This document shows, in pieces, positions 3,232 to 37,060 of a stretch of 64,000 bases of DNA (positions within the stretch are counted from its first letter, which is position 1; every line of letters starts with the position of its first letter). A program made the translations under genes and the position numbers. Origin of the DNA: a virus; IMG/VR virus record IMGVR_UViG_3300023174_002543, positions 187,664-251,663 of that record; one strand, written 5' to 3'. Below the pieces are notes generated by a model. The model was not told the DNA's origin. It did not search any database and saw nothing but the letters and a program-made list of their open reading frames with translations.

Positions 3232-3782
3232 AGACTCTTGCCCCAACGTGTATTGATGACATTCCAGTTTATGATCTTCCATTGTTCACGCAAATACTTC
3301 TTTTTATCGGCTCCGTAGTCAAGTGTCCAGGCATGTTCCCACCAATCAATTAATAACAATATATCATTACGAACTTCATGGTTTTTGATTGTTTTGAGTT
3401 TGCCATCACTTGCTAGATAAATCCAACCACTACCCTGTATAGTCATAGCCTCAGTCTCAATACTATCTTTGAGACCGTCGTAACTTCCATAATGCTTGTT
3501 TATAAATCCAAGCATAGGGCCGTTGGGCTTGTTATTGTTGCGTACCTCACGGAACTGAGGGAACAGAGTATTGTGTAGGAAAGCACCTGCGTAGTTAAAT
3601 TCTTTATCACCTTCACCCTTGTTATATCTATCAGCATATCCATGTGCTAGTTTACCAAAGTGCAAGTCTAAGGCACCGGCACTGAATACAGGCTTTACAT
3701 CCTTATATTCAAAATTTAACGGAATGATTTCTATATCTTGAGGCTTGTTTTTATCCTCAAGAAGGCTGATTATATCTCGCAT
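3228..3782 (-). CDS. Fe/Mn superoxide dismutase-like protein (C-terminal DWWEHAW..LDY motif = DxWEHAYY metal-ligand motif; H-x3-K-x2-H N-terminal region)
   Basis: Motif match in translation; 184 aa slightly short for SodA/B. Confidence 0.5.
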   Translation of the reverse strand: MRDIISLLEDKNKPQDIEIIPLNFEYKDVKPVFSAGALDLHFGKLAHGYADRYNKGEGDKEFNYAGAFLHNTLFPQFREVRNNNKPNGPMLGFINKHYGSYDGLKDSIETEAMTIQGSGWIYLASDGKLKTIKNHEVRNDILLLIDWWEHAWTLDYGADKKKYLREQWKIINWNVINTRWGKSL

Positions 3783-3813
3783 ACTTATATTTATCGTATG
3801 CGAGATATGTTTA

Positions 3814-6153
3814 TCAGAAGCGTACTGCTAATTGAATTTGTGCTATATCAGCAACGACTCCATTTTGTCTTTGTTGACCTATTTTTAGTATCATAGTAGA
3901 GTTGTTTTGTGCGTTATACATCAATGTTCCGTAAGCAGTAGATAGATTTTTATTGTTTTGTGCTACTTCCCCGGATACTGCCCAATTTTGATTAAATTGG
4001 TGTTCATAGCGCATTCCATACTCTGTAGTATCAACTGTTTGCTTTAGGTTAGTATAGTCAACTGCTGTTAGTGAAGAACCAGTTTCCATAACATAGTCAC
4101 GTGAATTATGTTCTTTTCTAGCACCAACGAAAGGTCTGAATCCCTTCATAGCAGGGGTATATACACGCAAATGCGCCCAGGTATCCTGACCATGTGTATT
4201 AGCATTGTTACTCATACTTAATTCAGGTAATGTATGGAATGTATTATAAGTATTTTTGGATTGTCCTACATCAGTTTTAAATATCCAATCATTATGTACA
4301 TATAGGTTATAGATAGTAAGTGCTTCTTTGTATAAACTACCGCCACTGTTAGTGCCATCTAATACAGTGCTTATTCGGTTGTATTGTAAACCTAACAATG
4401 AAGAACGACTAATTCTATGCTCTGCACCAAATGTATCTATTGTTGCAGTATAACTATACCCATCTGATAAGTTAGACTTTGTTTTTGAACCATGTATATA
4501 AATGTTAATATCACGGTCATCAAAACTACGGTTAGAGATTCTATCGTCTTTAACTAAGTTTCTACTTAATGGATCACTTAATAAACTATAGTTGATTCTA
4601 GTATTGGTTTCAGATAGTTTATCCATTTGGTCAATGCGTGTAGTATAGTTTTGATCCGTTGAGGTAATCTGAACATCATCTACAATAGTTGTAGTTGTTG
4701 TCACATCATTTCTTGTAGTAACTACGGTTACAGGAGTATCTGTTGTAGTAGTTGTTGTACCATCACTCCAAGTAGTAACTGAAGTAGGAGTTGTAACGGT
4801 AGTTATAGTTACCGGTGTTGTATTAGTAACCACAGTAGTTACAGGTGTTGTACTAGTTAGTGTGGTAGTACGAATGATATTGAGTTCTCTTACACCACGC
4901 TCACCTCTAGTATTAGCATATGTAGTAACATCAACGGTTGAACCCCTTGTTATATTACTTGTTGTTACTGTTGTACCTGGTGTTTCTGTTACTACAACCG
5001 ATGATGTGCCCGGTGTAGTACTGACTACTGTAGGTGCAGGTGTAGACATACTGCTTACAGAGCCTGCGGTTCCTGGATTAGCAATAGAACCAACTAATGT
5101 ACTTGTGCTGGTTGATGTGTTATTACTATCATAGTAATAGGTAACTTCACCTATCTGTACGCTATCACATGCTAATGTACCTAATGCTGATTGACAACCT
5201 GATATTGAACCATACGTATCAATAGCCTTAATGCTAGGGAATGTTATAAAGTAATAAACATATGGATTATTATTATTAATAGTAATCATACTTGTTTGAG
5301 TATAACGACCGCTGACATTTTCTAATGTTGTACTTTGATTTGCAGTAATCTCAGTCCAAGTACGACCATCATTACTACCATACAAGGTAAACTTAGTAGG
5401 ATCTCTTGGTACAAAGTCGTTAGCAGTAGTAAATTTAATACCATTGATGACTTTACCTGCATTCAATGTAATTGTAAATCCTGCATTAGCACGGTCAAAG
5501 TTTAAATATTTCGTACCACTACTTCCGTCAACTGCCTTAGTTGCACCTTCACCACTTGGACTATTACTACTTGTAGGAGTAACAGTACTGATAATGCTAC
5601 TTGTAACTGCTGTATAGTTTACAGTAGGTGCAACAGTTTGTCCTGCGGCTAATGGAGTAGTTGAACCACCTACACTCAATGCATTAACTTGTGATAATGT
5701 TGGATTGCGTGTTCCAGTCCATGACAACCCACTAGTGTTAGCAAAACCTTGTGTCATACTAAACAACTGACCGGTGTTGTTATCATTGCCCACAAAGAAG
5801 AAATAGTCTGTGCCCATATTAATAATATGCCCAGTGCCCATTACTGCTTTTTGAACGCCTGCTGAATTATATTGAATAGCATTGTATGGATTTGTGCTGT
5901 TACCTGTAGCTACAAATTTAATATAGTCTCCGGAAGACCAACTTAGTTGACCACTTGTCCATGGAATCTTATATGCTGTTCCAGGATTTTTACTATAGAT
6001 TTGACAAGTGGTCGTATTCATACAAGCATTAACATTCCACTGACTATCTGCTATCTGTGCTTGACCAAATTGTAAATCTGTAAAATCTGCACTTGCATTT
6101 ACGCTCATGGCGGTAAGCAGAGCCATAATGGCTCCCTTTAAAAATCTTATCAT
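3814..6153 (-). CDS. Secreted/outer-membrane protein: Sec signal peptide (MIRFLKGAIMALLTAMSVNASA), F5/8 type C (discoidin) domain (KAVDGSSGTKYLNFD...), long Thr-rich linker, C-terminal autotransporter-like beta-barrel ending in ...LAVRF
   Basis: Signal peptide and terminal aromatic residue seen in translation; Thr-codon repeats 4690-5100. Confidence 0.5.
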   Translation of the reverse strand: MIRFLKGAIMALLTAMSVNASADFTDLQFGQAQIADSQWNVNACMNTTTCQIYSKNPGTAYKIPWTSGQLSWSSGDYIKFVATGNSTNPYNAIQYNSAGVQKAVMGTGHIINMGTDYFFFVGNDNNTGQLFSMTQGFANTSGLSWTGTRNPTLSQVNALSVGGSTTPLAAGQTVAPTVNYTAVTSSIISTVTPTSSNSPSGEGATKAVDGSSGTKYLNFDRANAGFTITLNAGKVINGIKFTTANDFVPRDPTKFTLYGSNDGRTWTEITANQSTTLENVSGRYTQTSMITINNNNPYVYYFITFPSIKAIDTYGSISGCQSALGTLACDSVQIGEVTYYYDSNNTSTSTSTLVGSIANPGTAGSVSSMSTPAPTVVSTTPGTSSVVVTETPGTTVTTSNITRGSTVDVTTYANTRGERGVRELNIIRTTTLTSTTPVTTVVTNTTPVTITTVTTPTSVTTWSDGTTTTTTDTPVTVVTTRNDVTTTTTIVDDVQITSTDQNYTTRIDQMDKLSETNTRINYSLLSDPLSRNLVKDDRISNRSFDDRDINIYIHGSKTKSNLSDGYSYTATIDTFGAEHRISRSSLLGLQYNRISTVLDGTNSGGSLYKEALTIYNLYVHNDWIFKTDVGQSKNTYNTFHTLPELSMSNNANTHGQDTWAHLRVYTPAMKGFRPFVGARKEHNSRDYVMETGSSLTAVDYTNLKQTVDTTEYGMRYEHQFNQNWAVSGEVAQNNKNLSTAYGTLMYNAQNNSTMILKIGQQRQNGVVADIAQIQLAVRF

Positions 6154-15996: not shown

Positions 15997-16602
15997 TTAT
16001 ACAACATTATTTGTAATACGTTTTTCTAACACTTTATCCGCTAGCCCATACTCCACTGCTTGGGTAGCACTCATAAAATTATCACGTTCCATATCAGCAG
16101 ATAATTGTTCAAATGTTTTACCCACACTATTATGCTTAACATAAATGTTAGTGAGGTTCTTTTTCATCTCAATAATTTCATTTACCTGAATAAGCATATC
16201 AGTTGCTTGCCCACGTGCGCCACCTGATGGCTGGTGAATCATGTGTCGTGCATTGGGAAGAATAAAACGCTTACCGGGGGAGCCTGCTTGTGCAAGTAAA
16301 CTACCCATTGAACATGCCTGACCCATAACAATTGTATGTACATCTGGTCCGATAAATTGCATTGCATCATAGATAGCCATACCAGCAGTTACACTACCAC
16401 CTGGGCTATTGATGTAAACTGAAATGTCTTTATTGCTATCTTCGCTTTCTAAGAATAACAATTGGGCAACAATAAGATTTGCCATTTGGTCATGAACCTC
16501 ACCCTCAAGTAAGATAACACGGTCACGCATTAATCGACTATAAATGTCGTAACTACGTTCACCCTTTGATGTTTGTTCAATAACGATTGGTACTAATGCC
16601 AT
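15997..16602 (-). CDS. clpP: ATP-dependent Clp protease proteolytic subunit ClpP (Ser GQACSMGS, His MIHQPSGG, Asp ERD)
   Basis: Catalytic triad motifs in order. Confidence 0.85.
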
Positions 16603-16626
16603 ATAACTTCCTATAAAATAGTAATT

Positions 16627-16655
16627 ATTATATAAGAAATTTACTTGATTGTCAA
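16627..16655 (-). promoter_or_regulatory. sigma70 consensus promoter TTGACA-N17-TATAAT upstream of clpP; -35 embedded in palindrome CTTGATTGTCAAG
   Basis: Read directly. Confidence 0.55.
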
Positions 16656-16663
16656 GTGTTTAG

Positions 16664-18259
16664 TTATCTTTTTTTGACCACTGATTGCTTGCTGCGACCC
16701 ACATTACCGCCTGCTTTAACCTGTTGTGATAGTTTGGTAACTTTATCGGGTTCGGCTATACTTTGTGAAATTTCGGGTTCGTCAATATCTACATCTGGCG
16801 TAGTGTCAACATCAATATATGGACCGTCTGGGCCCATATCTTCATAGTCACTTGCGTTACGACCTAACTTGAAACTAAACCCAGCACTACTTGGTTCTAC
16901 TGCACTAGATTTGTTTTCCATAGTTACAACGCCTTCAAGTTTTGAGGGCCATTGTGTAGCAAATGTTATCTCACCATTAGAATTGTAATCGGTGTATTGT
17001 TGAATAAAGTTCATTTCTAAAACTTGTAGAATAGTATCTGCAAATTCTGGAACAACTGCTTTACTGTTAACTAACTGTGCAATGGTTTTCTTAATCTTAT
17101 AAACCATTTTACCACCGTCACTAGCCTTCTCACTGTTAACATCATTTATTAAAGGTTGATATACTTGCGGTAATTGTAATGATTGTATACCCTTTTCATT
17201 CTTTTGACCCTTGATACTATTAATACTTGCAATACATTGTTGTTGTAGTTTAGGAGCCTTGCTTTCAAATGGTAAAAATTTATGCCAAACTTTTGGTACA
17301 CCGTTTGGACTAACTGAATATAAGAAATCCATAATCTTAAATGCCTGTACAATAGTACTTGGACCAGTCTCATCTTTACCTGCCTGACATAATTCAATTA
17401 ATCTAACTGCATTCTTTAATTTTGCATTACGTTTGATATCTGGACTTATCTTCAACCCTGATATTGCAGGAGCTGCTCCACCACCGGTACCTTTACTACT
17501 GATATTCAAACTATGGCTTGTATTTGGATTTTTAATAACTGCATAACTATCAGCAATGTTATTGTTAGCCGCACTAGGGAAGTTCAATGTTAACTCACCG
17601 ATATCACCACCTAGCCACTCTAAGAACTGTTGCTTTCTTGGGAAGCGACTACGACCATATAATAATGCCAGTACACCCAAGTATTCACCTGCATAATCAA
17701 CAATTGCTTTGCGTTCTGATTCTTTTGCTTTTTCTAAATATTCAGGTGGTAATTGACAATATTCACCTGCAATAATATATTGTGCTAGTTGAATAACTAC
17801 TCTACCATAGTCTGTACTTTGAAGTACTTGATTGCCTGCAATTTGTTCGTATAAATCCGTAGCAGGAATATCTCTGTCTGTAATCTTAATTAAACTTGGT
17901 TTCAGTAATACGGATTCTTTTGTACTACCGCCAAATTCTTCATTCTTGGCCAATTGTGACATCGGAATTTCTTGTCCGTCTTTAGTTAAGATAGTTGTTT
18001 TCTCACCCTTGAACGTACCGTCCTTCTTCATTTTAGTTAGACGCTTTGCCTCATTTGGATCAATAAAGATTTGGTCACCTGTTACATTGTCAATGAAGGG
18101 TTGATTTGTGGATATCTTTTGAATCAATAACGTCCAACGTGCAGGGTCTTTGTTTATTTGGGTGGGGGTTAAGCCGTTAGCAAAAAGAGTTTGAGGAGCA
18201 TTAGGATCCTTCTTTGTTGCTTCTTCTAAATTTTCTAGTATTGTTAATAAATCACGCAT
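16664..18259 (-). CDS. Hypothetical 531-aa protein, no recognised domain
   Basis: ORF. Confidence 0.4.
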   Translation of the reverse strand: MRDLLTILENLEEATKKDPNAPQTLFANGLTPTQINKDPARWTLLIQKISTNQPFIDNVTGDQIFIDPNEAKRLTKMKKDGTFKGEKTTILTKDGQEIPMSQLAKNEEFGGSTKESVLLKPSLIKITDRDIPATDLYEQIAGNQVLQSTDYGRVVIQLAQYIIAGEYCQLPPEYLEKAKESERKAIVDYAGEYLGVLALLYGRSRFPRKQQFLEWLGGDIGELTLNFPSAANNNIADSYAVIKNPNTSHSLNISSKGTGGGAAPAISGLKISPDIKRNAKLKNAVRLIELCQAGKDETGPSTIVQAFKIMDFLYSVSPNGVPKVWHKFLPFESKAPKLQQQCIASINSIKGQKNEKGIQSLQLPQVYQPLINDVNSEKASDGGKMVYKIKKTIAQLVNSKAVVPEFADTILQVLEMNFIQQYTDYNSNGEITFATQWPSKLEGVVTMENKSSAVEPSSAGFSFKLGRNASDYEDMGPDGPYIDVDTTPDVDIDEPEISQSIAEPDKVTKLSQQVKAGGNVGRSKQSVVKKR

Positions 18260-18268
18260 AATATGTAT

Positions 18269-18760
18269 TTAGCACTTGAACAAATCTTGGTGTTTAAACC
18301 AACGTTTTTGTCCATGACTAGTTTTTAGCGCAATACCGTGTTTAGCTAATTTGTCACGGAATACAAAGAAACTAGGACCGTGACTTAGAATGAAATCTTT
18401 ACCTTTTCTATAACGCTTGGGTCCATCTATATCCCATTGATATTGATGACACATTTCATGTGCTAGTGTAGTTACCATCCACTGCGGGCAGAACCATTTA
18501 TCCATCATTTTTATAGTACAGTAACTCCCTGTATAGTTTATTGAAGTTTCTGCTATACACATGCCCCAGTATTTCTTACAATGACTAGCTAAAACTAACT
18601 TTGGCATATGTAGTTTATTGTCAAAAATTAACCAATTCAGTTGTTCATATACATGTCTAATATCACTTTTTGAGGGTCTATAGGGTAATTTTCTCTGTAA
18701 ATAAACAGGGGGAAGAGGAAAATCCATTATTTCTTCTAAGGAGTAGTTAATGAGTTTCAT
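18269..18760 (-). CDS. SprT-like/WLM-type zinc metallopeptidase (LAHEMCHQ HExxH motif)
   Basis: HEMCH motif. Confidence 0.4.
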   Translation of the reverse strand: MKLINYSLEEIMDFPLPPVYLQRKLPYRPSKSDIRHVYEQLNWLIFDNKLHMPKLVLASHCKKYWGMCIAETSINYTGSYCTIKMMDKWFCPQWMVTTLAHEMCHQYQWDIDGPKRYRKGKDFILSHGPSFFVFRDKLAKHGIALKTSHGQKRWFKHQDLFKC

Positions 18761-18829
18761 ACATATATTTATGAAAAATATACTACTTTAGTGCAAACCA
18801 ACTAAATAATAGTACAAGGAGAATTTATC

Positions 18830-19111
18830 ATGGAATTGATTATTGGAATCGCAGTTATTGCAGTTGTTGGTTATTTTGTTTTACGCAAAAAACCAGAAGT
18901 AGTGCAAGAAATCGTTGAGGAAGTTAAAGAAGTCGAGAAAAAAGCTGAAGTAGCAGTTGCTAAGGTTGAAGCAGAAGTTAAAGAAGTTGCTAAAAAGACT
19001 ACCACCCGTGTTAAAAAAGCATTGGATGTTAATCAAGATGGCAAGGTCAATGCTAAAGACGCAGTTGCTGCCGTTAAAAAAGCACGTAAACCACGTGCCC
19101 CTAAGGCGTAA
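18830..19111 (+). CDS. Small membrane-anchored Lys/Val/Glu-repeat protein
   Basis: AAGGAG RBS; plus-strand island. Confidence 0.4.
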   Translation: MELIIGIAVIAVVGYFVLRKKPEVVQEIVEEVKEVEKKAEVAVAKVEAEVKEVAKKTTTRVKKALDVNQDGKVNAKDAVAAVKKARKPRAPKA

Positions 19112-19134
19112 TTCTTTAATTAAACATTAACGGA

Positions 19135-19156
19135 AATAGGGCTACGGCCCTATTTT
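19135..19156 (+). terminator. Hairpin AATAGGGC-TACG-GCCCTATT + T-rich tail
   Basis: 8-bp stem. Confidence 0.45.
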
Positions 19157-19159
19157 ACT

Positions 19160-19855
19160 ATGATTTTTGGCTTTGATATAATTAGTGATTTAAACCTAAC
19201 AGAGAATGATATCTTTGATTGGGAAGGAAAGCCAACAAGTCTTTATTGTGTGCTTGCAGGTAACATATCTAGCGACCTGCACGTACTCTATAAAACTATC
19301 AAACATTTGAGTAAGTTATATCAAGGTGTTTTTTATATAGATGGTTTTATAGAAAATAGCCAAATAGAAGATAAAGACCGCGTTATAGATGAAATATCAA
19401 AAATATTCACTGGTATGAAAAATGCAGTATATCTACATAACAATGTAGTTGTAGTAGAGGGAGTAGCATTAGTAGGAGTGAATGGGTGGTACGGAAATCA
19501 AGCCACTACACAAGGAGACACACTCAATCTAAGAATGAATAGGTATGATGATTTGGCATACCTGCAAAAAACAATAGAGAAATTGCAACTTCATATAGAT
19601 GTAAAACAAATCGTAATAATTTCTAATAGTATACCTTCTATTGAATTGTATTTTGGTGAGAAACCTAATATAGATCCAGCTGAGATAAATCTAAATTATG
19701 TGTTAGATACTGATACTGAGAGTAAAATAACTACTTGGGTATTCGGAACACATAAAAAAATAGTTGACACCAAAATTAACGGTGTCAACTATTTTAATAA
19801 CCCTTGTCTTACTAAGATTCCTTATTACCCTAAAAGAATCAATATAGAAGTTTAA
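19160..19855 (+). CDS. Hypothetical protein
   Basis: ORF. Confidence 0.35.
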   Translation: MIFGFDIISDLNLTENDIFDWEGKPTSLYCVLAGNISSDLHVLYKTIKHLSKLYQGVFYIDGFIENSQIEDKDRVIDEISKIFTGMKNAVYLHNNVVVVEGVALVGVNGWYGNQATTQGDTLNLRMNRYDDLAYLQKTIEKLQLHIDVKQIVIISNSIPSIELYFGEKPNIDPAEINLNYVLDTDTESKITTWVFGTHKKIVDTKINGVNYFNNPCLTKIPYYPKRINIEV

Positions 19856-20163
19856 ACTTCGCTTTCAATTTTGACTTGTAAGGGGAAACCTTCTTGTCTT
19901 GCATCAAGTGTAACTTCAATTCCCTTTTGTTCTGCAATCTCGTATGGCAATACTGCAACTACAGCACTTCCTTGTTCATGTATACCTACTGTGATATTTT
20001 GTGCGGTATCACTGGTATAATTAAAGTGATCCACTAAACTACGTACTACAAAATCCATAGAAGTTAGTTCATCATTTAAATAGATAACCTTGAACATAGG
20101 GGGTTCTTGGATAGCTAGATTAGGCTTGATTTTAATTTTTGTATCTATATGTGTTGATGCCAT
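19852..20163 (-). CDS. clpS: ClpS adaptor protein
   Basis: Colinear with E. coli ClpS core (K.I.LND..T.M.FV...L...F.....A......H..G.AV). Confidence 0.75.
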   Translation of the reverse strand: MASTHIDTKIKIKPNLAIQEPPMFKVIYLNDELTSMDFVVRSLVDHFNYTSDTAQNITVGIHEQGSAVVAVLPYEIAEQKGIEVTLDARQEGFPLQVKIESEV

Positions 20164-20224
20164 TTTAAACCCTTAAAGTTAGTAGTGCATATTTCTATAC
20201 ACTACTTTTATTTACAATAAATGT

Positions 20225-20253
20225 ATTATACTATTTAGTGTAGTTTATTGCAA
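20225..20253 (-). promoter_or_regulatory. Promoter TTGCAA-N17-TATAAT upstream of clpS
   Basis: Read directly. Confidence 0.5.
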
Positions 20254-20698
20254 TACTCTTGGGTTTTTTGTCTTCCGGGACTAAACGTTCGCATGTAATA
20301 GTCAAAATACCGTTATTATGCTCGGCATTTTTAACTTCCATGTGTTCTCCTAAGATAAATTCACGTTGGAAGTTTCTATAACTAATACCACGGTGTAGAT
20401 ATTCTTTTGGTTTATCCAAATCCTGAATTTTGTTACCAGTGACAGTAAGCATACGATTTTCTATCTCAATAGAAATTTCCCCTTGAGTAAATCCTGCAAC
20501 TGCAATTTCAATTGCAAAATTGTCCTCAGAGATTTGTACCACATTGTACGGTGGGTAATTATTATTTGTTTGTGTTGCATTCATACGCATCAATTCGTCT
20601 AACATAGAATCAAATCCTATGCCAAATCTATGAATTGCAGGTATGTCTAATGAACGTAATGATAATGTGTTTGTCATGTTTTTCTCCTTATTAAGCAA
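20231..20698 (-). CDS. Small heat-shock protein Hsp20/IbpA family (alpha-crystallin domain)
   Basis: Size and ACD pattern (GISYRNFQREF..). Confidence 0.7.
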   Translation of the reverse strand: MLNKEKNMTNTLSLRSLDIPAIHRFGIGFDSMLDELMRMNATQTNNNYPPYNVVQISEDNFAIEIAVAGFTQGEISIEIENRMLTVTGNKIQDLDKPKEYLHRGISYRNFQREFILGEHMEVKNAEHNNGILTITCERLVPEDKKPKSIAINYTK

Positions 20699-20708
20699 GT
20701 ATATGACA

Positions 20709-20760
20709 AGCGGGCCTCGAAAGCGCCCGCTATCTTTATAGAATCTTATTTAGATTCTTT
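20709..20760 (-). terminator. Two tandem hairpins (AGCGGGC..GCCCGCT and AGAATCT-TATTT-AGATTCT) immediately after dnaK stop
   Basis: Inverted repeats read directly. Confidence 0.4.
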
Positions 20761-22677
20761 TACCTCTGCATCAACCACTGTTGACTCATCAACGGGTTTT
20801 GCAGTTTCTTCTGTAGTAGCAGTTGGATTTGCTGCCTCTTCAGCCTTCTTCTTGGCTTCTTCTTCCTCATACTTAAACTTAGTAATTGGACCGATAGCCT
20901 CGTATAACTTAGGAATACTATCTTGGATTGCTTTAGGATCATCACCTTCCATAGCAGTTTCAACAGCCTTAATAGCTTCGTCTGCTTTGTTGCGTTCTTC
21001 TTCGGTGACCTTATCCTTATAAGCCTCAAAGTCTTTCTTAAAGCCAAACAATGTACCTTCAGCACTATTACGTGCTTGTACTAATTCAACATGTTTCTTA
21101 TCGGCTTCAGCATTCAACTCACCATCTTTAACCATTTGTTGAATTTCTGCTTCACTTAATCCTGAATTAGCCTTGATAGTGATTTTGTTCTCTTTACCAG
21201 TACCTTTGTCCTTAGCGGACACTTTGAGAATACCGTTAGCATCAATATCTAATGTAACTTCAATCTGTGGTTGACCACGTGGTGCTGGTGGAATGTCACC
21301 CAAACTAAACTCACCCAATACTTTATTATATTGGAATAGTTCACGTTCACCTTGACCTACTTTAATAGTAACTGCCGGCTGATTGTCATCCGCAGTACTA
21401 AAAGTTTGTGAATGTTTAGTTGGGATAGTTGTATTCTTGTTAATCAATTTAGTGAATACACCACCGACTGTTTCGATACCAAGACTCAATGGAGTAACGT
21501 CAAGTAATAGAACGTCACTACGGCCACCACTCAATACATCACCCTGAATAGCAGCACCTGCGGCAACTGCTTCGTCTGGGTTAACATCTTTGCGTGGTGC
21601 CTTGCCGAATAATGATTCAACAACTTCTTGCACCTTAGGCATACGTGTCATACCGCCAACTAAGATAACTTCATCAATGTCACCTGCACTAACATTAGCA
21701 TCTTGCATAGCCTGACGACATGGAGCCAAACTACGTTGGATTAACTCGTCAACCAATTGTTCTAATTTAGAACGTGATAGTTTAACGTTCATGTGCTTAG
21801 GACCATTTGCATCGGCTGTAATATATGGCAAGTTAACATCTGTTTGTGCTGAACTTGATAATTCAATCTTAGCCTTTTCTGCGGCTTCTTTTAGTCGTTG
21901 TAGTGCCAACACATCTTTACTTAAATCAACTCCGTTGTCTTTCTTAAACTCATCAATTAAGAAATCCATAATACGTTGGTCAAAGTCTTCACCACCTAAG
22001 AATGTATCACCGTTCGTAGACAATACTTCGATTTGTTTGTCACCGTCAACATCTGCTAATTCAATGATAGATACGTCAAATGTACCACCACCTAAGTCAT
22101 AGACTGCAATTTTACGGTCACGTTTTTCTTGTTTATCAACACCATATGCTAGTGCGGCCGCTGTTGGCTCGTTAATAATACGCAATACTTCTAAGCCTGC
22201 AATTTTACCTGCATCCTTAGTTGCTTGACGTTGACTATCGTTAAAGTAAGCAGGAACTGTAATAACTGCTTGGGTTACATCATGTCCAAGATAGTCTTCG
22301 GCAGTCTTTTTCATCTTGCGTAGTACTTCGGCACTAATTTGCGGGGGTGCTAACTTTTCATCATTAACTTGTACCCATGCATCACCGTTATCGTTCTGTA
22401 CGATTTTGTATGGCATTAGGTCAATATCTTTTTGCACAGCCTGTTCATTAAACTTACGTCCAATTAAACGTTTGCTTGCATAGATTGTGTTCTTTGGATT
22501 TGTAACTGCTTGGCGTTTGGCGCTTGCACCAACCAAGATTTCATCGTTTGCGTAGGCAACGATTGAGGGTGTAGTTCTAGCACCTTCTGAATTTTCAATT
22601 ACTTTGGGGATTCCGTTTTCGATAACGGCTACGCATGAATTTGTGGTACCCAAATCGATACCGATGACTTTGCTCAT
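20746..22677 (-). CDS. dnaK: Hsp70 chaperone DnaK
   Basis: [25 protein letters not shown], full-length 643 aa. Confidence 0.9.
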
Positions 22678-22783
22678 TTTTTTCTCCTTTAAAAAGCAAG
22701 ATGTTTATATAGACCTGACTATCAGCGTCCATATGTATTTATATATTTTACATTGTTGCGTAAAATATTTGTATATTATTGGG

Positions 22784-23002
22784 TTAATATTGTTTAGGGG
22801 GAAGTGTTTGGTCACGCAAATACTTTTTCCAACGACTCTTTGCTTTACTCTTATCTATCTTACGCTTAGTAGTGGGTTTTACAAATTCTTGTCTATCACG
22901 GATTTCTTGGATTAATCCTGACTCTAAGATTTTTTTTTTGAATTTACGTAATGCTTTTTCAACATTTCCGTCTGGTCCTACTATTACTTTTCTTCCTGGC
23001 AT
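22784..23002 (-). CDS. rpsU: Ribosomal protein bS21
   Basis: MPxxKV....ALR.FK......G...E.R.R..F.KPT..RK motif, 72 aa. Confidence 0.8.
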   Translation of the reverse strand: MPGRKVIVGPDGNVEKALRKFKKKILESGLIQEIRDRQEFVKPTTKRKIDKSKAKSRWKKYLRDQTLPPKQY

Positions 23003-24192
23003 ATGATTGGTGTTGGTTTAATAATCTGCTCCCTACTTATATTTATCTTTTTAACATTAAACTTACGATATTCACGTGTCCGATACATATGGCACATTAA
23101 TGCTTTTTCAATTTCAGTGTGCAAGCCCCTAGCACCGGTCTTTAGTGCTAGTGTATTTTCTGCTAATTGATCCAATGCATCTTCTGTAAAGGTCAAATCA
23201 ATTTCATCTAATTTAAGCAAATATTGATATTGACTGATATAGTTGTTTTTCACATCTGTAAGAATATGTATTAATTGTTCTTTAGTGAGGTTTTTTACAC
23301 TAATAGTGGTTGTAAAACGACCTACAAATTCCGGAATTAATCCAAACTTAGTCAAGTCATCAGGGGTGACTTCTGACAAATCACCTTCTATTTTACTATC
23401 TTTAATGTCTGCGGCAAATCCAATACTAGTACCATTGGTGCGTTTTGCTATAATTTCTTTTAATCCTACAAATGCACCACCTGCAATGAATAATATATTT
23501 TTAGTATCAATCTCAACCATGTCTGAACCAGGGTGTTTACGTCCACCTTGATTAGGTACACGACAAACTGTACCCTCAACTAACTTAAGCAATGCTTGCT
23601 GTACGCCCTCACCTGACACATCACGGGTAATGCTAGTACTTTCACTTTTACGGGCAATTTTGTCAATTTCATCAATGAATACGATACCCTTTTCAGCTAA
23701 AGATTTGTCTCCTCCAGCCGCGTTAAGCAACATACTAATCATTGATTCAACATCATCACCTACATATCCGGCTTCGGTTAAACTAGTAGCATCGGCAACA
23801 ACAAACGGAACCTTTAAATACTTGGCGGCAGTTTTAGCCAATAGTGTTTTACCACTACCAGTTGGACCAACTAACAATACATTGCCTTTTTGAATTTCTA
23901 AGTCTTTGGGAGGACGACTAATACGCTTATAATGATTAGTGATTGCGACACTTAACACTATTTTAGCACTATCTTGACCCACAATATGTTGGTCCAAATA
24001 TTCTTTAATACTTTCAGGATCATATTGGGGTTCTTCTTGTGGACCTGAGGTTTCATCAACTATTAATTCTTGGCAAAGTTCAACACAATCGCTACAGATT
24101 GCTACACTTTCACCTACGATTAATTTTTTGACTGTTTCTTTACTAGTACCACAAAAACTACAATGAGTGAGTTGTTTATTTTCTTCTGTCAT
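22984..24192 (-). CDS. clpX: ClpX ATP-dependent unfoldase (N-terminal C4 zinc-binding domain CSFCG..CSDC; Walker A GPTGSGKT)
   Basis: ZBD + AAA+ motifs. Confidence 0.85.
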
Positions 24193-24228
24193 TATAATAC
24201 TTATCTAAGTACAAATACTTGATAGAAT

Positions 24229-25200
24229 TTATACTTTACCTAAGCATACATTTCTGTTAGAAGTCATATATACGTTAACATGATCCATGCGTTTTAGGTC
24301 ATTGAATGTTTTACTATCCTTAGGAATAGTATATGCGGCATTAACAGTAAAAGGATCAATCATACCAATTGCACTAAAATTAGGGTAATCACCGCAACCA
24401 CGAATGATAGAATTACCATTTACATCTACTACTTCAACTACGGAGAACATGGTGATGAATATAGACTCAAATGTTTTCTTGTAAATTTTTTCATCATTGA
24501 TAAACAATTCAAGTTTTTCATCAAATGCACTAAATGATGATTTAGGTTTACGCCATATTGAAATTTTTCTATATGTAGATTTACCATCATCACTTACTCT
24601 GTTTAAATTTTCAACCAATGAATCTACCCATTTTGGATTCCAAGTAACAACGGCAGATATCTCAATAATCATATCTCGGTCATTGTTTAATTTAATTTTA
24701 GTGGATGTTACATTAGAATTGAATGCACTTTTCGGGTATCCATTGAGAAGATTACCTATTAATTTTTCCGCATCGTCACGTTCTTTACTATAAGAATCAT
24801 ATTGTGCATATATCCTAGACGAATCTAATACACCTTTTTTATTACCGGTACTTAAAATTACATCAGCAATTTGACTGTTCTTAACTTTAACATCCATAGT
24901 AATACTATAACCCAAACTAGTGTGTGATTGGTCAATGAGTTTGAAATCATCGACATAACCACTGCTATGTTTTAGAATTTGGTCACGTACTAGTACGTTA
25001 TTGGTTGCTTGTTTTTCAGTTATTACTATCGCACCAACAGCCATTTCAACTGCTAATTGAAATCCATTACGTCTAGCCTCTTCTACTGTTTTACCAGTAC
25101 CGAGCACTCGTACATAACCATTTTCTACTTTGGCTTCTTTAGAAGGTGTGCTTGCACAGGCCGAAAGTATCAGCACTAGCACTATGGCTAGATATTTCAT
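24229..25200 (-). CDS. Lipoprotein (lipobox LSAC), LPP20-like N-terminal domain
   Basis: Signal peptide + Cys. Confidence 0.45.
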   Translation of the reverse strand: MKYLAIVLVLILSACASTPSKEAKVENGYVRVLGTGKTVEEARRNGFQLAVEMAVGAIVITEKQATNNVLVRDQILKHSSGYVDDFKLIDQSHTSLGYSITMDVKVKNSQIADVILSTGNKKGVLDSSRIYAQYDSYSKERDDAEKLIGNLLNGYPKSAFNSNVTSTKIKLNNDRDMIIEISAVVTWNPKWVDSLVENLNRVSDDGKSTYRKISIWRKPKSSFSAFDEKLELFINDEKIYKKTFESIFITMFSVVEVVDVNGNSIIRGCGDYPNFSAIGMIDPFTVNAAYTIPKDSKTFNDLKRMDHVNVYMTSNRNVCLGKV

Positions 25201-25823
25201 TTCATTCTATTGGCAAGTTGATTACGAACGGCTTCGCTATCCAAATCCCAACGAATGGTAACTGCTACTTCTTGAGGACCAATTACTTCTTCTTTGATTT
25301 TTATAAAACCTTTAAGTATTGCACTTGAGTTTGTTTTGATTGTTTCAGTTAATTGAACAACCGTATCGTTTTGGTTCTCACGCAAACTAGTATTTGCGGC
25401 TTCTTTATCAGTCATTTCAACTGTTGAACCATCTGCATTACCGGATTTAACAACATCTTTTGCTTTTTCAATGTTCTTGGCAATAGTAGTGTTAACACGG
25501 TTAGTACTAATTTCTTTATTTAAGAATTCACTTACATTGCTATTCGCCCTCATTTCGGCAATAGTCAACGCATTTTTACGGTTGCTAGTTGTAGCACCGA
25601 ATGTTGGTGCAGTACCGGTTGACTCAATGGCAACAATCTTACAATTACTACCTAAACCAAACCATTCACATTTGGTTTCAACTTTGATTTTTTCACTTAC
25701 AAAGTTGGTAGACAATTTTTGACTTGTGATGGGTCCGGAACTATTAGCACCGTCTACCGACTTCATACTAGAACATGCAGACAAAAGTACTACAATTGCT
25801 ACTGCTGAAAGTTTGAGTTTCAT
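25197..25823 (-). CDS. Lipoprotein (lipobox LSAC)
   Basis: Signal peptide + Cys; ATGA overlap with downstream gene. Confidence 0.45.
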   Translation of the reverse strand: MKLKLSAVAIVVLLSACSSMKSVDGANSSGPITSQKLSTNFVSEKIKVETKCEWFGLGSNCKIVAIESTGTAPTFGATTSNRKNALTIAEMRANSNVSEFLNKEISTNRVNTTIAKNIEKAKDVVKSGNADGSTVEMTDKEAANTSLRENQNDTVVQLTETIKTNSSAILKGFIKIKEEVIGPQEVAVTIRWDLDSEAVRNQLANRMK

Positions 25824-34609: not shown

Positions 34610-34638
34610 ATTATATACCCAAAGTGATTTATTGTCAA
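34610..34638 (-). promoter_or_regulatory. Consensus promoter TTGACA-ATAAATCACTTTGGGTA-TATAAT
   Basis: Perfect -35/-10, 17-nt spacer. Confidence 0.65.
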
Positions 34639-34826
34639 CCTTTTTCGACCACGGTCAAATCGTTGACCCACTCTAGTTCCATCAATGCATCTTCCTCATT
34701 ATCAAACCCTACCGCATCATGTCCTGATGCATAGTGTTTAATGTAGAATTTTCCGTTGCCCGGGCTTGCCTCAGTATCGATACCAACTTCACCGACACCT
34801 TCAACTATTCTAACAATGAAATCCAT
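34635..34826 (-). CDS. Hypothetical small protein
   Basis: ORF. Confidence 0.3.
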   Translation of the reverse strand: MDFIVRIVEGVGEVGIDTEASPGNGKFYIKHYASGHDAVGFDNEEDALMELEWVNDLTVVEKG

Positions 34827-34827
34827 G

Positions 34828-35100
34828 TTATACTCCTACTCTATACGTATTATAATTACGGATTTTGCTTTGGCGATTAGTATGGCTTTCGTTGAAACGG
34901 ATTTCATAGCCACGTTCACGCAGGGCAGTAATCAATACTGACAAATCACAATCCTCTTCCAAGAAAGCATTCTCACCTTTTTGATAACTATAAGTAGAGA
35001 TTTTATCAGCGATACCAAGTTTCACCAATTTGGACTTAGCAATACGTGCCCAAGCATGACCTGGATCTGCAAAAACTTTGATAGAGATTTTTTTAGTCAT
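34828..35100 (-). CDS. Hypothetical small protein
   Basis: ORF. Confidence 0.35.
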   Translation of the reverse strand: MTKKISIKVFADPGHAWARIAKSKLVKLGIADKISTYSYQKGENAFLEEDCDLSVLITALRERGYEIRFNESHTNRQSKIRNYNTYRVGV

Positions 35101-35109
35101 TTGTACTCC

Positions 35110-35382
35110 TTAGACCAAATCAACTTGTACTTGTTTGCCACGGAAAGTGTCACCGAGACCTGTTGGAATCGTTTCGTTTTTGCGTTTGGCTTCATAACGC
35201 AAATAAGACAATTTAATCATTGCGTCCCAGCAAAGTGAGCGGGCGTTAACTGTAGCAAATTGCTCGGTCATTTGCTGGATTGTCATATAAAAACCAACGT
35301 CATTTTCACTACCGTCACCCTTGAAAATGATACGGAATTTTTGTGAATTTTTGAAACCGTCAATGATAGTTTTTGTACGCAT
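35110..35382 (-). CDS. Hypothetical small protein
   Basis: ORF with promoter+RBS. Confidence 0.4.
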   Translation of the reverse strand: MRTKTIIDGFKNSQKFRIIFKGDGSENDVGFYMTIQQMTEQFATVNARSLCWDAMIKLSYLRYEAKRKNETIPTGLGDTFRGKQVQVDLV

Positions 35383-35415
35383 TTTGTAGTCCTTTTCTTT
35401 ACTGTCTAAGATTCT

Positions 35416-35444
35416 ATTATATACCCAAATCCATTTATTGTCAA
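35416..35444 (-). promoter_or_regulatory. Consensus promoter TTGACA-ATAAATGGATTTGGGTA-TATAAT
   Basis: Read directly. Confidence 0.65.
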
Positions 35445-35785
35445 GCCATTTTGTATGATTTTATGAATTCAGGACCAACATCTAGACTAACAAAAGTATC
35501 ACCTTGCATACCTTGCTCAGAATAAGAAACATCAGTACCTAATTCTAGTCTAGAAAGTAATACTTTTACATTACTTAAAAATTCTTTATCCGTATAGATG
35601 AGGCCGTAAACATTCACATTCCAAGTATCAGGGCTAAAGTGTACCCTTAGTTCACCAAACTCCCAATCATCAGATGTATACGAAAGTTCTAATCCGGTAA
35701 CTAGTACTGTTTTAGCCAGGTTAGACCAATAACCAGAACCATCTGTACTCAACTTTGTATTAACTTTAATCATTAATTGCTCCAA
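35441..35785 (-). CDS. Hypothetical protein
   Basis: ORF. Confidence 0.35.
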   Translation of the reverse strand: MEQLMIKVNTKLSTDGSGYWSNLAKTVLVTGLELSYTSDDWEFGELRVHFSPDTWNVNVYGLIYTDKEFLSNVKVLLSRLELGTDVSYSEQGMQGDTFVSLDVGPEFIKSYKMA

Positions 35786-36063
35786 AAAGATTCGCTAGAG
35801 GGTGAACAGAAATACGGGGTATCATACCGTTCCTTGTATGTCTTACCAGTCATTAAATTTTGCTTAATTTCATAAGTTTGGAACATCTCAACAATGAAGC
35901 CCAACTTGCGTTTTGATTCAGCAACAGCCTCGATATAGTCTTTAGTAGAAGGGGCAAAATCTTCTTTTTTAATAAGACGTTTACCTTCTTTGACACGTTT
36001 GTCAGATTTGTAAATTTCAAGTGTGTAGCAAAGCATTTGTGACATTTGTGTTCCTTTAATCAA
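35773..36063 (-). CDS. Hypothetical protein
   Basis: ORF with promoter. Confidence 0.4.
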   Translation of the reverse strand: MIKGTQMSQMLCYTLEIYKSDKRVKEGKRLIKKEDFAPSTKDYIEAVAESKRKLGFIVEMFQTYEIKQNLMTGKTYKERYDTPYFCSPSSESFWSN

Positions 36064-36074
36064 TCAATACAAGT

Positions 36075-36103
36075 ATTATATACCCAAATCCATTTATTGT
36101 CAA
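36075..36103 (-). promoter_or_regulatory. Consensus promoter TTGACA-ATAAATGGATTTGGGTA-TATAAT (identical to 35416-35444)
   Basis: Read directly. Confidence 0.65.
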
Positions 36104-36105
36104 CC

Positions 36106-36480
36106 TCAGGCCGCTTTTCTAAAGTAATTATAGGGCAATCCCTGAGTAAAGCAAAAGTATTCATAATCACCGTTAGCACCCTCAGCATCCATCAACCAAG
36201 CAATCACACGTTCACGATTGGTACCAGTGTGCATGAGGTTAGTAATAGTATCCTCAAACTTAGCAATAGCCGCTGCCTCAGCAATTTTACGTTGGGCATC
36301 CTCTTGTTCAATAGCAGTAGCCAATGAAGCAAACTCTGCTTCAAATACCTCAAGGGTCCAACCAGAAGTGTCAACACCGCGAGGGCGAACGCCATAAGCA
36401 TCCTTGTACATATCCCAATATGTGCATTGGGCTTGTTCCAACTCAGACATTTCTTCCCAAGATTTGAATTCGTTTGACAT
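36106..36480 (-). CDS. Hypothetical acidic protein
   Basis: ORF with promoter and AAAGGAG RBS. Confidence 0.4.
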   Translation of the reverse strand: MSNEFKSWEEMSELEQAQCTYWDMYKDAYGVRPRGVDTSGWTLEVFEAEFASLATAIEQEDAQRKIAEAAAIAKFEDTITNLMHTGTNRERVIAWLMDAEGANGDYEYFCFTQGLPYNYFRKAA

Positions 36481-36513
36481 TTTGTACTCCTTTAATCAAC
36501 TAACTAAGACTCT

Positions 36514-36542
36514 ATTATATACCCAAATCCATTTATTGTCAA
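36514..36542 (-). promoter_or_regulatory. Consensus promoter TTGACA-ATAAATGGATTTGGGTA-TATAAT (third identical copy)
   Basis: Read directly. Confidence 0.65.
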
Positions 36543-36775
36543 GTTTTGGATTTCTCAGCACCGACGATTTCCCAATGATTTCCGTCACATTTGACAAAAA
36601 TCTTACGACCGAAAACTGTCACAAAACCATACTCACCGTCTTGGTAGACGTTGACCGGATCAGGGATAATGGTCACCGTGCGGGGTGTCTCACAGTAATC
36701 CCAACGCCTAGTAGGAAGTTTGTTTTTGAAATACATGTAATTCTGACTACCTGTAACAAAAAGTTTTACCTTCAT
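36539..36775 (-). CDS. Hypothetical small protein
   Basis: ORF. Confidence 0.35.
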   Translation of the reverse strand: MKVKLFVTGSQNYMYFKNKLPTRRWDYCETPRTVTIIPDPVNVYQDGEYGFVTVFGRKIFVKCDGNHWEIVGAEKSKT

Positions 36776-37049: not shown

Positions 37050-37060
37050 TCAATACATGT

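Follow-up and report, generated by a model that had tools for sequence, protein, structure and literature searches.

A likely proteostasis module of an uncultured T4-superfamily jumbo phage, with candidate ROSE-like leaders before hsp20 and dnaK

Introduction

Why does a virus carry genes for protein degradation, folding and translation of the kind that bacteria use for housekeeping, and how would their products be released during infection? The question is raised by a 64,000-nucleotide stretch of the IMG/VR virus record IMGVR_UViG_3300023174_002543 (positions 187,664 to 251,663 of that record), called the window below, in which clpX, rpsU (ribosomal protein bS21), dnaK, hsp20, clpS and clpP lie on the minus strand between positions 15,997 and 24,192. 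The analysis presented here indicates that this block likely serves an uncultured T4-superfamily jumbo phage as a conserved module for host takeover and proteostasis, for which a working model is proposed. The gene set itself is already described; the new part is the regulatory layer, which consists of promoters and of leader RNAs that resemble ROSE elements.

The six genes and their relatives

The proteins of the window were scored against Pfam and NCBIfam profiles, with the curated cutoff set beside each score. Each of the six genes has profile support, with the identity, position and strand that an initial annotation of the window had given it.

22984..24192, minus strand: clpX, 402 amino acids, AAA+ unfoldase; NF003745 518.9 bits (cutoff 359)
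22784..23002, minus strand: rpsU, encoding bS21, 72 amino acids; TIGR00030 47.9 bits (cutoff 28.95), PF01165 51.5 bits (cutoff 27)
20746..22677, minus strand: dnaK, 643 amino acids, full-length Hsp70; TIGR02350 906.7 bits (cutoff 822.55)
20231..20677, minus strand: hsp20, 148 amino acids from the ATG; PF00011 65.7 bits (cutoff 20.8)
19852..20163, minus strand: clpS, 103 amino acids; PF02617 84.9 bits (cutoff 23)
15997..16602, minus strand: clpP, 201 amino acids; NF001368 308 bits (cutoff 249)

Profile scores and motif alignments also bear out the full-length DnaK, the ClpX zinc domain and the intact ClpP triad that had been noted before. ClpX passed a second equivalog (TIGR00382, 496.1 bits against 370.75) and has intact motifs throughout, namely C11/C14/C33/C36 of the N-terminal C4 zinc-binding domain, GPTGSGKT109, GYVG142, IDEIDK173 and RKH218, followed by IGF (residues 257-259), GRF291 and GARGL353. 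The IGF tripeptide aligns with the IGF of E. coli ClpX and is thus a putative ClpP-docking loop; from their position in E. coli ClpX, we take GRF to be the arginine finger and GARGL to be sensor-II. DnaK passed a second equivalog as well (NF001413, 974.3 bits against 648); it has the nucleotide-binding domain, linker, substrate-binding domain and lid, with motifs that include DLGTTNS8, DLGGGTFD194 and VLLLDVTPL389. In ClpP, the triad S98/H123/D174 aligns with S97/H122/D171 of E. coli, and its score on the stricter equivalog TIGR00493 (294.4 bits) falls slightly under the cutoff of 308.6. The protein appears to have no propeptide, because its first residue coincides with the N-terminus of mature E. 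coli ClpP. Its best phage relatives are those of Phosso (69.6% identity) and Atu_ph07 (67.5%).

ClpS and Hsp20 are divergent members of their families, since both passed Pfam and missed the NCBIfam equivalog cutoffs. Every NCBIfam ClpS equivalog scored under its cutoff (best 74.4 against 149). Hsp20 has the alpha-crystallin domain and a C-terminus, ...KSIAINYTK, that carries the IX(I/V) motif as I-A-I; it is IbpA-like and no IbpA orthologue, because the best NCBIfam IbpA model (NF008013) gave 124 bits against a cutoff of 212. A longer hsp20 reading frame begins at a TTG that lies within the anti-Shine-Dalgarno motif described below, and the ATG at 20677 is therefore the true start.

Four further genes (an SprT-like peptidase, a 531-amino-acid protein and two plus-strand open reading frames) split the block, so that the description of it as mostly contiguous was accurate. 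The rpsU start overlaps the clpX stop by 19 nucleotides in the window, as it does in about 47 of 55 related loci and in the Pseudomonas phage PA5oct, and the overlap makes translational coupling of the two genes probable. The ratio of nonsynonymous to synonymous substitution rates (dN/dS) is 0.10-0.16 across eight module genes (0.10 for each of clpX, dnaK and clpP, and 0.15 for the 531-amino-acid gene), values that are approximate because dS is saturated. None of the six genes is truncated or has lost its functional motifs, and all evolve under purifying selection.

An alignment scan of IMG/VR with ClpX retrieved 80 loci (59-79% identity), the viral contigs being as long as 360 kb, and the window proteins were compared with these loci by local BLAST. 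In the counts below, the denominators are the loci with enough sequence. The gene order is fixed: it runs from ligase through a 599-amino-acid membrane protein and (two lipoproteins) to clpX, bS21 and [dnaK] and continues with hsp20, clpS, a 231-amino-acid gene on the opposite strand, (SprT-like, 531-amino-acid) and clpP. The order clpX-bS21-[dnaK]-hsp20-clpS...clpP recurs in about 80 IMG/VR contigs.

Hsp20 downstream of clpX: 66 of 66 related loci
ClpS downstream of clpX: 65 of 65
231-amino-acid gene downstream of clpX: 62 of 63
bS21 directly after clpX: 58 of 78
ClpP within 9 kb of clpX: 31 of 43
DnaK: 14 of 66, in 13 of them between clpX/bS21 and hsp20 and in one (locus L022) elsewhere with the same leader

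The complete set of six was found in 13 of 66 uncultured relatives. Among 50,697 deposited phage records, DnaK matched 44, a set made up of Lak phages, further huge phages and evident contaminants from host DNA, and ClpS matched 16; no genuine phage record among them had DnaK and ClpS together. The window has the block known from PA5oct, with clpX, an overlapping bS21 gene, a small heat-shock protein (sHsp) gene, clpS and clpP within about 10 kb. The six-gene combination is thus missing from deposited genomes, is recurrent in uncultured relatives and belongs to a known jumbo-phage module. The rarity that the initial annotation had attached to the set was overstated, as PA5oct has the same order without dnaK, 13 of 66 relatives have all six genes, and Clp sets of such phages have been discussed before (PMC6102473, PMC7824862).

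One side observation concerns the start of clpX. The stretch before it (24193-24215, and its equivalents in L005-L084) has no AGGAG Shine-Dalgarno sequence, and a conserved GATAAGTA(A/T)TA motif stands immediately before the clpX ATG in most relatives. This motif could be a non-Shine-Dalgarno initiation signal or a promoter for a near-leaderless mRNA, which is notable beside a phage bS21 gene.

ROSE-like leaders of hsp20 and dnaK

In ROSE elements, translation is repressed through pairing of the Shine-Dalgarno sequence (SD) to U(U/C)GCU, and the pairing melts on heating (PMC3669281). The intergenic leader that follows bS21 is conserved in every relative and consists of a (T)ATAAATA box, a hairpin and the series CUUGCUU-loop-AAGGAG-AUG. 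It stands immediately upstream of the sHsp gene in the window, in about 70 related loci and in 8 cultured phages. The leaders of 69 hsp20 and 13 dnaK genes were aligned with MAFFT, and a covariance model, R1, was built from this 82-leader alignment. R1 has exactly two matches in the window, which are given here with the box that precedes the first of them.

22669..22738, minus strand: dnaK leader; hairpin 1 with a bulged G, then CUUGCUU...AAGGAG...AUG; R1 69.4 bits, E 4e-13
20669..20736, minus strand: hsp20 leader; GC-rich hairpin 1, then GUCAU-CUUGCUU-loop-AGGAG-N5-AUGAC; R1 53.4 bits
22736..22743, minus strand: TATAAATA box, T4-late-promoter-like, a few bases upstream of the dnaK leader's hairpin 1

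The structure is upheld by compensatory change. Eight of the ten pairs of hairpin 1 vary on both sides while 93% of cells remain paired, and the whole leader structure shows 133 double-sided changes against 39.5 in shuffled alignments, a number that none of 500 shuffles reached. Controls in which the structure was slid along the alignment were 41-50% paired, against 89% for the leader structure itself. A U-G wobble is conserved in 72 of 80 leaders, which places the structure in the sense-strand RNA. The helix between the SD and its anti-SD is 97.7% paired; the anti-SD CUUGCU is nearly invariant, with CUCGCU in cyanophages. The unpaired G typical of ROSE occupies alignment column 68, between pairs 67-82 and 69-81, and in hsp20 leaders an outer GUCAU/AUGAC helix is able to pair the start codon too.

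Two further lines of evidence link the element to ROSE and to sHsp genes. First, Rfam ROSE_3 spans its full model on the hsp20 leader of the window (21.1 bits, E 0.44) and is the top Rfam match at the hsp20 leader in seven of nine related loci (23.6-34.8 bits, E down to 0.0019). An enterobacterial ibpA leader from a mislabelled "phage" record served as the positive control and gave 100.4 bits with ROSE_2. Second, the R1 matches in 1.38 Mb of related loci were confined to leaders of hsp20 and dnaK and to two sites ahead of a phasin-like gene, and the following matches outside its training set each end on an annotated sHsp start codon.

Methylophilales phage Melnitz: R1 57.8 bits at the sHsp start
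Cyanophage S-CRM01: 37.5 bits
PA5oct: 36.4 bits
Pelagibacter phage Mosig: 35.5 bits
Phosso: 34.1 bits
Atu_ph07: 29.7 bits
Prochlorococcus phage P-SSM4: 27.0 bits
S-CAM9: 26.4 bits

With filters off, the hsp20 leader was also the top R1 match in 50 kb of P-SSM4. A second match there (L246:333-410; 20.1 bits, E 0.02) lies directly before the major capsid gene gp23, and the remainder scored at most 11.8 bits. The gp23 match may be due to chance, or it may be a related hairpin-plus-SD arrangement on a late gene. The two sites before the phasin-like gene (L060:20765-20835 and L070:19811-19881) precede a protein of 91 amino acids (MFTADAIIDTVQ...) and have the CUCGCU anti-SD; they suggest that in some relatives this gene forms a third class under the same leader type.

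What the leaders do was approached by structure prediction with ViennaRNA. In the dnaK leader of the window, the predicted accessibility of the SD climbs with temperature, with values of 0.21 at 4 C, 0.65 at 25 C and 0.84 at 37 C. Taken with the analogy to IbpA, this makes an on-demand gate, responsive to temperature, to titration of the sHsp by aggregates, or to both, the most likely function of the leaders. The wider proposal, that a previously unreported ROSE-like gate sits on the hsp20 genes of T4-superfamily phages, was duplicated onto a captured dnaK and senses temperature or aggregation to release phage chaperones, is put forward tentatively and rated somewhat below even; the same rating covers its scope, which would take in jumbo phages, cyanophages and Pelagibacter and Methylophilales phages.

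Several results weigh against this proposal. All ROSE_3 scores (21.1 bits in the window, 20-34.8 in relatives) lie under the Rfam gathering score of 43, and an Rfam search of PA5oct and Phosso gave no ROSE match where the clade model R1 did. The SD/anti-SD helix is without covariation support of its own because it is nearly invariant. For the hsp20 leaders, masking is predicted to persist up to 45 C, with an accessibility of 0.25-0.37 for the SD and at most 0.16 for the AUG; since they barely open between 4 and 45 C, a pure thermometer is not predicted for them. The box upstream is equivocal too. The exact TATAAATA occurs only in a minority of leaders, and with three copies in the window against about 10 expected it is depleted there, so that the late-promoter reading rests on positional conservation across loci.

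In another explanation, the leader is a real RNA structure and no sensor, for example a 5' stabilising hairpin, a site of RNase processing or protection, or an operator for a RegA-type repressor. T4-type phages encode RegA; in S-CRM01 regA lies immediately upstream of hsp20, and P-SSM4 has regA as well. The closed prediction for hsp20 leaders up to 45 C, the second P-SSM4 match before gp23 and the sub-threshold Rfam scores throughout fit such a role. Against it, the leaders carry the specific ROSE signature, with a U(U/C)GCU anti-SD and a bulged G opposite the SD, and hairpin 1 follows the ROSE_3 consensus GAUGCCGA..UCGGGUC nearly letter for letter. Furthermore, the element is tied to sHsp genes in very different phages and otherwise precedes only dnaK and the phasin-like gene. 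A structure without sensing is therefore judged unlikely, and the same low estimate applies to the particular case in which the GGAG is shielded from a RegB-type nuclease. The on-demand gate remains the preferred reading.

As to novelty, no report of a ROSE-like element in any phage was found in the full-text literature that could be searched, the coverage of which is incomplete, so that novelty is unproven. No paper in that same incomplete literature combined hsp20, cyanophage and thermometer, and the PA5oct transcriptome paper is silent in its main text about genes for Clp, heat-shock or S21 proteins.

Promoters and the ClpXP and ClpS proteins

The clpP gene, at the far end of the block, has a different kind of control signal.

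16627..16655, minus strand: sigma-70 promoter with perfect consensus, TTGACA-N17-TATAAT, directly upstream of clpP

Perfect TTGACA-N16-18-TATAAT sites number 11 in the window, where 0.16 would be expected, and every one of them lies on the minus strand. A general sigma-70 scan of the block gave 38 sites against 39 expected, so that the enrichment is confined to perfect-consensus sites. Sigma-70-like promoters that match at least 11 of 12 positions precede clpP in 14 of 45 related loci and precede the first of the two lipoprotein genes upstream of clpX in 17 of 33. Because of the latter, clpX and the bS21 gene may be co-transcribed with the lipoprotein genes. Nine more perfect promoters were seen on the minus strand at 34610-37089, 42870-43744 and 48174-48202 of the window. 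Six sites within 2.5 kb (34.6-37.1 kb) stand before small open reading frames and share the extended motif TTGACAATAAAT...TTTGGG.ATATAAT; this array resembles a class of early promoters that host sigma-70 would read.

The promoter bears on what ClpP is for. ClpP could be a prohead (head-maturation) protease and ClpX a chaperone of assembly or packaging, which would make the block a morphogenesis module. RefSeq labels the Atu_ph07 and PA5oct orthologues "head maturation protease", Iyer et al. propose that ClpA and ClpX may aid virion assembly, and the NCBIfam head-maturation and ClpP-MCP models match the protein partially. The match to the head-maturation model NF045542 (Clp_rel_HeadMat) reaches 107.2 bits, under its cutoff of 120, and covers only residues 52-191; by comparison, the alignment to E. 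coli ClpP runs end to end, and the ClpP model is passed with 308 bits against 249. In addition, clpP stands behind an early-type sigma-70 promoter among genes of replication and nucleotide metabolism, with no structural genes nearby. Phages of the T4 superfamily use a gp21-type prohead protease, which also counts against this role. A morphogenesis module is consequently improbable, and a degradative ClpXP is the preferred reading. ClpXP is predicted to be complete in itself.

The position of ClpS is different. ClpS is an adaptor for the N-domains of ClpA/ClpC-type unfoldases and not for ClpX, and we know of no function of ClpS with ClpX. In the alignment to E. coli ClpS, N30, D31, T34, M36 and H62 are conserved (N34, D35, T38, M40 and H66 in E. 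coli), as are E75, E78 and K80 (E79, E82 and K84), and E. coli D36 is replaced by E32; from E. coli ClpS, we take these conserved residues to be the N-degron pocket and the contacts to the ClpA N-domain. As both are kept, the phage ClpS most likely targets a ClpA. The pairing of ClpS with ClpA/ClpC rather than ClpX is echoed in a survey of jumbo phages (PMC7824862).

Searches of the window by tblastn with E. coli and Atu_ph07 probes gave no DnaJ, GrpE or ClpA. They confirmed the earlier statement that the window lacks DnaJ and GrpE and extended it to ClpA, the Atu_ph07 ClpA probe matching only the AAA+ module of clpX. The window has no open reading frame for a Clp ATPase of 750 amino acids, and the ClpAPS N-degron pathway is incomplete there. 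The same holds for the DnaK-DnaJ-GrpE system, which has neither a J-domain protein nor GrpE in the window, unlike cellular loci. A scan of IMG/VR for ClpA and DnaJ of Atu_ph07 gave 0/36 and 0/35 matches, respectively, on module-bearing contigs, a weak test that used exact 8-residue peptides of a distant relative. A protein of 499 amino acids about 2.8-4.3 kb past the right end of the window (L158:3317-4816) was considered as DnaJ and rejected, as it has no J-domain or HPD and scores under the Pfam cutoff. It has two CXXCXGXG motifs of the type found in the DnaJ central domain and a C-terminal HExxH-like HELTHH.

"ClpXP+ClpS" is accordingly not one machine, because ClpS serves ClpA/ClpC and not ClpX and no ClpA is found in the window. 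For the same reason, the mechanism suggested by the initial annotation is partly wrong, namely in its link of ClpS to ClpXP.

dnaK as an added cassette

The box and the leader trace how dnaK entered the module. Among loci without DnaK, 58 of 59 have a TAAATA box ahead of the hsp20 leader, against a background of 4% per 70 nucleotides. In loci with DnaK, the box precedes dnaK in 9 of 13 and hsp20 in only 3 of 10, and hsp20 nevertheless retains a second hairpin with a CUUGCUU/AAGGAG leader. In L022, dnaK lies at another site with the same box and leader, and in L007 and L055 the coupling of hsp20 to the dnaK end is direct. From this distribution it follows that dnaK behaves as a cassette of box, leader and gene that co-opted the control region of hsp20. 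The outcome of its insertion is a predicted two-cistron operon in which each cistron would be gated. A side observation concerns L030 and L034, both from IMGVR_UViG_3300027749_002876 (524,565 bp), which represent two diverged copies of the module, one with and one without dnaK; that record probably arose by chimeric or concatenated assembly from two related phages and is no 524-kb genome.

The patchy occurrence of dnaK (14 of 66 relatives, at two different positions) might suggest that the cellular-type genes are recent neutral captures (morons) without a role in infection. This is very improbable, since no gene is truncated or has a broken motif, dN/dS is 0.10-0.16 (with dS saturated), the phage DnaK clade comprises at least 120 clusters at the 90% level, and the gene order is kept out to PA5oct. 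Moreover, the GC content of phage dnaK is down to 40%, against 53-57% in the nearest Comamonadaceae genes, which indicates that the capture was not recent. A retained module to which dnaK was added is the reading that these data favor.

Phage origin and probable host

The window carries an endolysin-like protein, an ATP-dependent ligase, an exonuclease and a T4-type family-B DNA polymerase (PolB), the nearest relatives of which belong to jumbo phages, namely Atu_ph07, Phosso, RaK2-like phages and SCTP-2. These genes and the viral relatives in IMG/VR support the earlier view of the block as phage-borne and coherent. The window has 33-40% GC, is coded nearly all on one strand and contains no tRNA genes in its 64 kb. 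A reading frame of 372 amino acids (62853-63971) was considered as part of an Atu_ph07-type split polymerase and rejected; it belongs to a single PolB of 902 amino acids that continues past the window end.

An identical DnaK is present on contigs of 0.2-1 Mb, and the top 120 DnaK database clusters (81-96% identity) are all unnamed metagenomic proteins. In GTDB, among the matches listed, the nearest cellular DnaKs have 70-73% identity over full length (up to 80% for partial ones) and come from freshwater Burkholderiales, namely Limnohabitans, Rhodoferax, other Comamonadaceae and Polynucleobacter. Eighty cellular DnaK loci among the matches listed had grpE in 79 cases, dnaJ in 75 and genes of the phage module in none. 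A megablast of the block against the 50,697 phage records gave no match, and relatives were found at the protein level only.

That the block is bacterial chromosome or prophage-flanking host DNA is hardly credible: all six proteins are typical cellular housekeeping proteins, and contaminated phage records with cellular dnaK, clpX or clpP do exist (Acinetobacter phage MD-2021a, Campylobacter phage A11a), but here the genes lie amid T4-type PolB, ligase, exonuclease, endolysin and many ORFans with near one-strand coding, 36-37% GC and no tRNAs, 80 IMG/VR viral contigs are syntenic, full-length cellular DnaKs among the matches listed reach at most about 73% against 81-96% within the phage clade, cellular dnaK loci among those matches have grpE/dnaJ and none of the phage neighbours, and ClpP has its closest counterparts in Phosso and Atu_ph07, ahead of every bacterial sequence that the phage collection contains. 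The initial annotation had named such an origin as what would overturn it, and the absence of module genes from the cellular DnaK loci among the matches listed speaks the other way. The window is a jumbo phage of the T4 superfamily and no cellular DNA, akin to Atu_ph07 and Phosso and, at a greater distance, to PA5oct. A bacterium of the freshwater Burkholderiales is its probable host.

Many records in such collections match dnaK, clpX or clpP and are evidently bacterial (MG065691.1, CAKLQF02/CAKLQH02 of Acinetobacter phage MD-2021a, the OR84xxxx series and AFYI01000001.1), and in the "Campylobacter phage A11a" record there is an enterobacterial ibpA whose ROSE_2 leader scores 100 bits. Tallies of DnaK-bearing phages drawn from collections of this kind are inflated.

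Comparison with known systems

Compared to PA5oct (a Pseudomonas jumbo phage of the Arenbergviridae), the window shares the run of gp255-gp260, with clpX, an overlapping bS21 gene, two small open reading frames, the sHsp gene and clpS, and also ClpP about 8 kb further on, with a metallophosphoesterase, a DNA ligase, GTP cyclohydrolase I and QueD nearby. The last two sit immediately upstream of clpX in PA5oct. The differences are that PA5oct has no dnaK, that its proteins have 27-51% identity with those of the window, and that it encodes an FtsH homologue, which the window lacks.

The closest cultured relatives are Atu_ph07 (Agrobacterium) and Phosso (Sinorhizobium), with about 50% identity in PolB, 50-52% in ClpX and 68-70% in ClpP. 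Both have ClpX, ClpP, ClpS and an sHsp preceded by the ROSE-like leader, and Phosso has bS21. However, their genes are dispersed over tens of kilobases (more than 17 kb in Phosso), and neither has dnaK. Atu_ph07 differs in addition by having ClpA, ClpB and DnaJ; its description lists ClpX, ClpA, ClpB, ClpP, ClpS and DnaJ (PMC6102473). The Clp set of jumbo phages in general is discussed elsewhere, where DnaK goes unmentioned (PMC7824862).

Moraphages, Lak and other huge phages are likewise large, uncultured and DnaK-bearing, and Lak also has ClpX and ClpP. These are separate lineages with Bacteroidota hosts, and no ClpS match was found for them among deposited records. Moraphages have DnaK, DnaJ and Hsp20 (PMC12619734); their DnaK comes from Flavobacteriales, with no Clp genes mentioned, whereas the DnaK of the window is nearest to Burkholderiales.

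The Pseudomonas ibpA ROSE element (ROSE_3, RF02523; PMC3669281) resembles the phage leaders in several respects. It lies in an IbpA-like sHsp gene's 5' untranslated region (5'UTR) and has two hairpins, the 3' hairpin contains the SD, which pairs imperfectly with U(U/C)GCU and has a G opposite it, and the core of hairpin 1, GAUGCCGA..UCGGGUC, is near-identical. It differs in that the phage leaders score under the family threshold and have a shorter hairpin 2 above the bulge, that the start codon is pairable through GUCAU/AUGAC in phage hsp20 leaders while the AUG is unpaired in Pseudomonas, and that the phages have a TAAATA box in place of the sigma-32 promoter of Pseudomonas ibpA. In E. coli, IbpA represses its own mRNA through the 5'UTR until aggregates titrate IbpA away (PMC10410725; Miwa 2021 cited therein). 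The phage system is like it in pairing an IX(I/V) sHsp with a structured, thermometer-type 5'UTR on its own mRNA. It differs in that dnaK of the phage clade shares the element, whereas the E. coli dnaK 5'UTR is not under IbpA control (PMC10410725), and RNA binding by the phage sHsp is hypothetical.

Single components for the host ribosome or DnaK system are supplied by other phages as well, and the window resembles them in this. Phage-encoded ribosomal protein bS21 was reportedly described by Mizuno et al. in 2019. A J-domain protein is known from the T4-like phage RB43 (cited in PMC12619734). Here, however, bS21 is in an operon with clpX, and the phage brings DnaK and no J-protein.

A working model

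The proposed working of the module, which is drawn from sequence and analogy, is as follows. First, clpP, transcribed from a strong early-type promoter read by host sigma-70, and clpX would supply a self-sufficient phage ClpXP, with IGF loops and no propeptide. Second, bS21, coupled to the translation of clpX, would join host ribosomes and bias translation initiation. Third, ClpS would dock on the N-domain of a ClpA-type unfoldase, either that of the host or one encoded elsewhere in the phage genome, and thereby steer ClpAP to N-degron substrates and off its other substrates. Fourth, dnaK and hsp20 would form an operon behind the T4-late-like TAAATA box, with the SD of each cistron paired to a UUGCU anti-SD that carries a bulged G. 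Through this pairing, translation is proposed to stay low until heat opens the helix or aggregation-prone proteins titrate the sHsp, a step modelled on the self-regulation of E. coli IbpA. Chaperones could thus be supplied on demand during mass production of virion proteins, with DnaK borrowing DnaJ and GrpE either from the host or from genes that the phage has at other places in its genome.

Two points count against the model as a whole. ClpA, ClpB, DnaJ and GrpE did not turn up in the window or in those stretches of module-bearing contigs that were examined, and the partners of ClpS and DnaK are thus assumed. The host call is weak, as it was made solely from the closest cellular DnaKs among the matches listed.

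Neighbouring genes and other features of the window

The genes that interrupt the block are the following.

19160..19855, plus strand: gene for 231 amino acids, convergent with clpS; faint phosphoesterase-like match (TIGR03729, E 0.0028), far under the cutoff
18830..19111, plus strand: open reading frame for 93 amino acids; PF00404 25.5 bits, dockerin/EF-hand-like motif
18269..18760, minus strand: SprT-like zinc metallopeptidase with an HEMCH motif; PF10263 27.7 bits (cutoff 25.6)
16664..18259, minus strand: protein of 531 amino acids, between the SprT-like gene and clpP

The SprT-like gene is shared with many close relatives, and peptidases of this kind have been recorded in group 2.2 jumbo phages (PMC7824862). 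The 531-amino-acid protein matched no family in Pfam or NCBIfam and has homologues in a subset of relatives. The 93-amino-acid product has a hydrophobic N-terminal segment and a K/E/A/V-rich stretch, with a homologue in few related loci only. A strong terminator-like hairpin lies at 19133-19156 on the plus strand, between the two plus-strand reading frames and just past the stop of the 93-amino-acid gene. Another, at 19757-19795 on the minus strand with a 16-bp stem, lies within the 3' end of the 231-amino-acid gene, a short way downstream of clpS; transcription of the clpX-to-clpS unit may stop at it, ahead of the SprT-like gene.

Directly upstream of clpX are the two predicted lipoproteins, at 24229-25200 and 25197-25823 on the minus strand, with signal peptides that end in LSAC; they matched no Pfam family and are kept in closer relatives. 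Further along the minus strand, positions 50610-56968 encode GTP cyclohydrolase I, PTPS/QueD, a radical-SAM protein (faint match), a cytidylyltransferase-like protein, a class II aldolase, a UDP-glucose/GDP-mannose dehydrogenase and a DHFR-like protein, a cluster that suggests 7-deazaguanine-type DNA modification or nucleotide-sugar chemistry. At the left end (1282-6153, minus strand) are a 666-amino-acid protein with a C-terminal endolysin/chitinase-like domain and a 779-amino-acid protein with an F5/8 type C (discoidin) carbohydrate-binding domain, which may be virion-associated proteins of lysis or adhesion.

Concluding remarks

Of the overall interpretation offered by the initial annotation, the phage origin and the functional coherence of the block stand, and its rarity and the link from ClpS to ClpXP do not. 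ClpS does not complete ClpXP; it points to manipulation of the ClpAP of the host or of a second, phage-encoded one. On its own, the gene kit adds one member to a module already annotated in PA5oct and Atu_ph07. In the wider clade, this module is a widespread, vertically conserved trait of a large uncultured group of freshwater phages, with DnaK as a mobile add-on.

The regulatory finding, promoters and ROSE-like leaders that the initial annotation had missed, outweighs the gene kit, as hsp20 is among the commonest "host-like" genes of T4-type cyanophages and pelagiphages. If the reading of the leaders is true, no ROSE element would have been known from a phage before, and no dnaK controlled by one. 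The conserved ROSE-like leader provides a testable hypothesis, namely that phage chaperones are held off until heat or aggregation stress.

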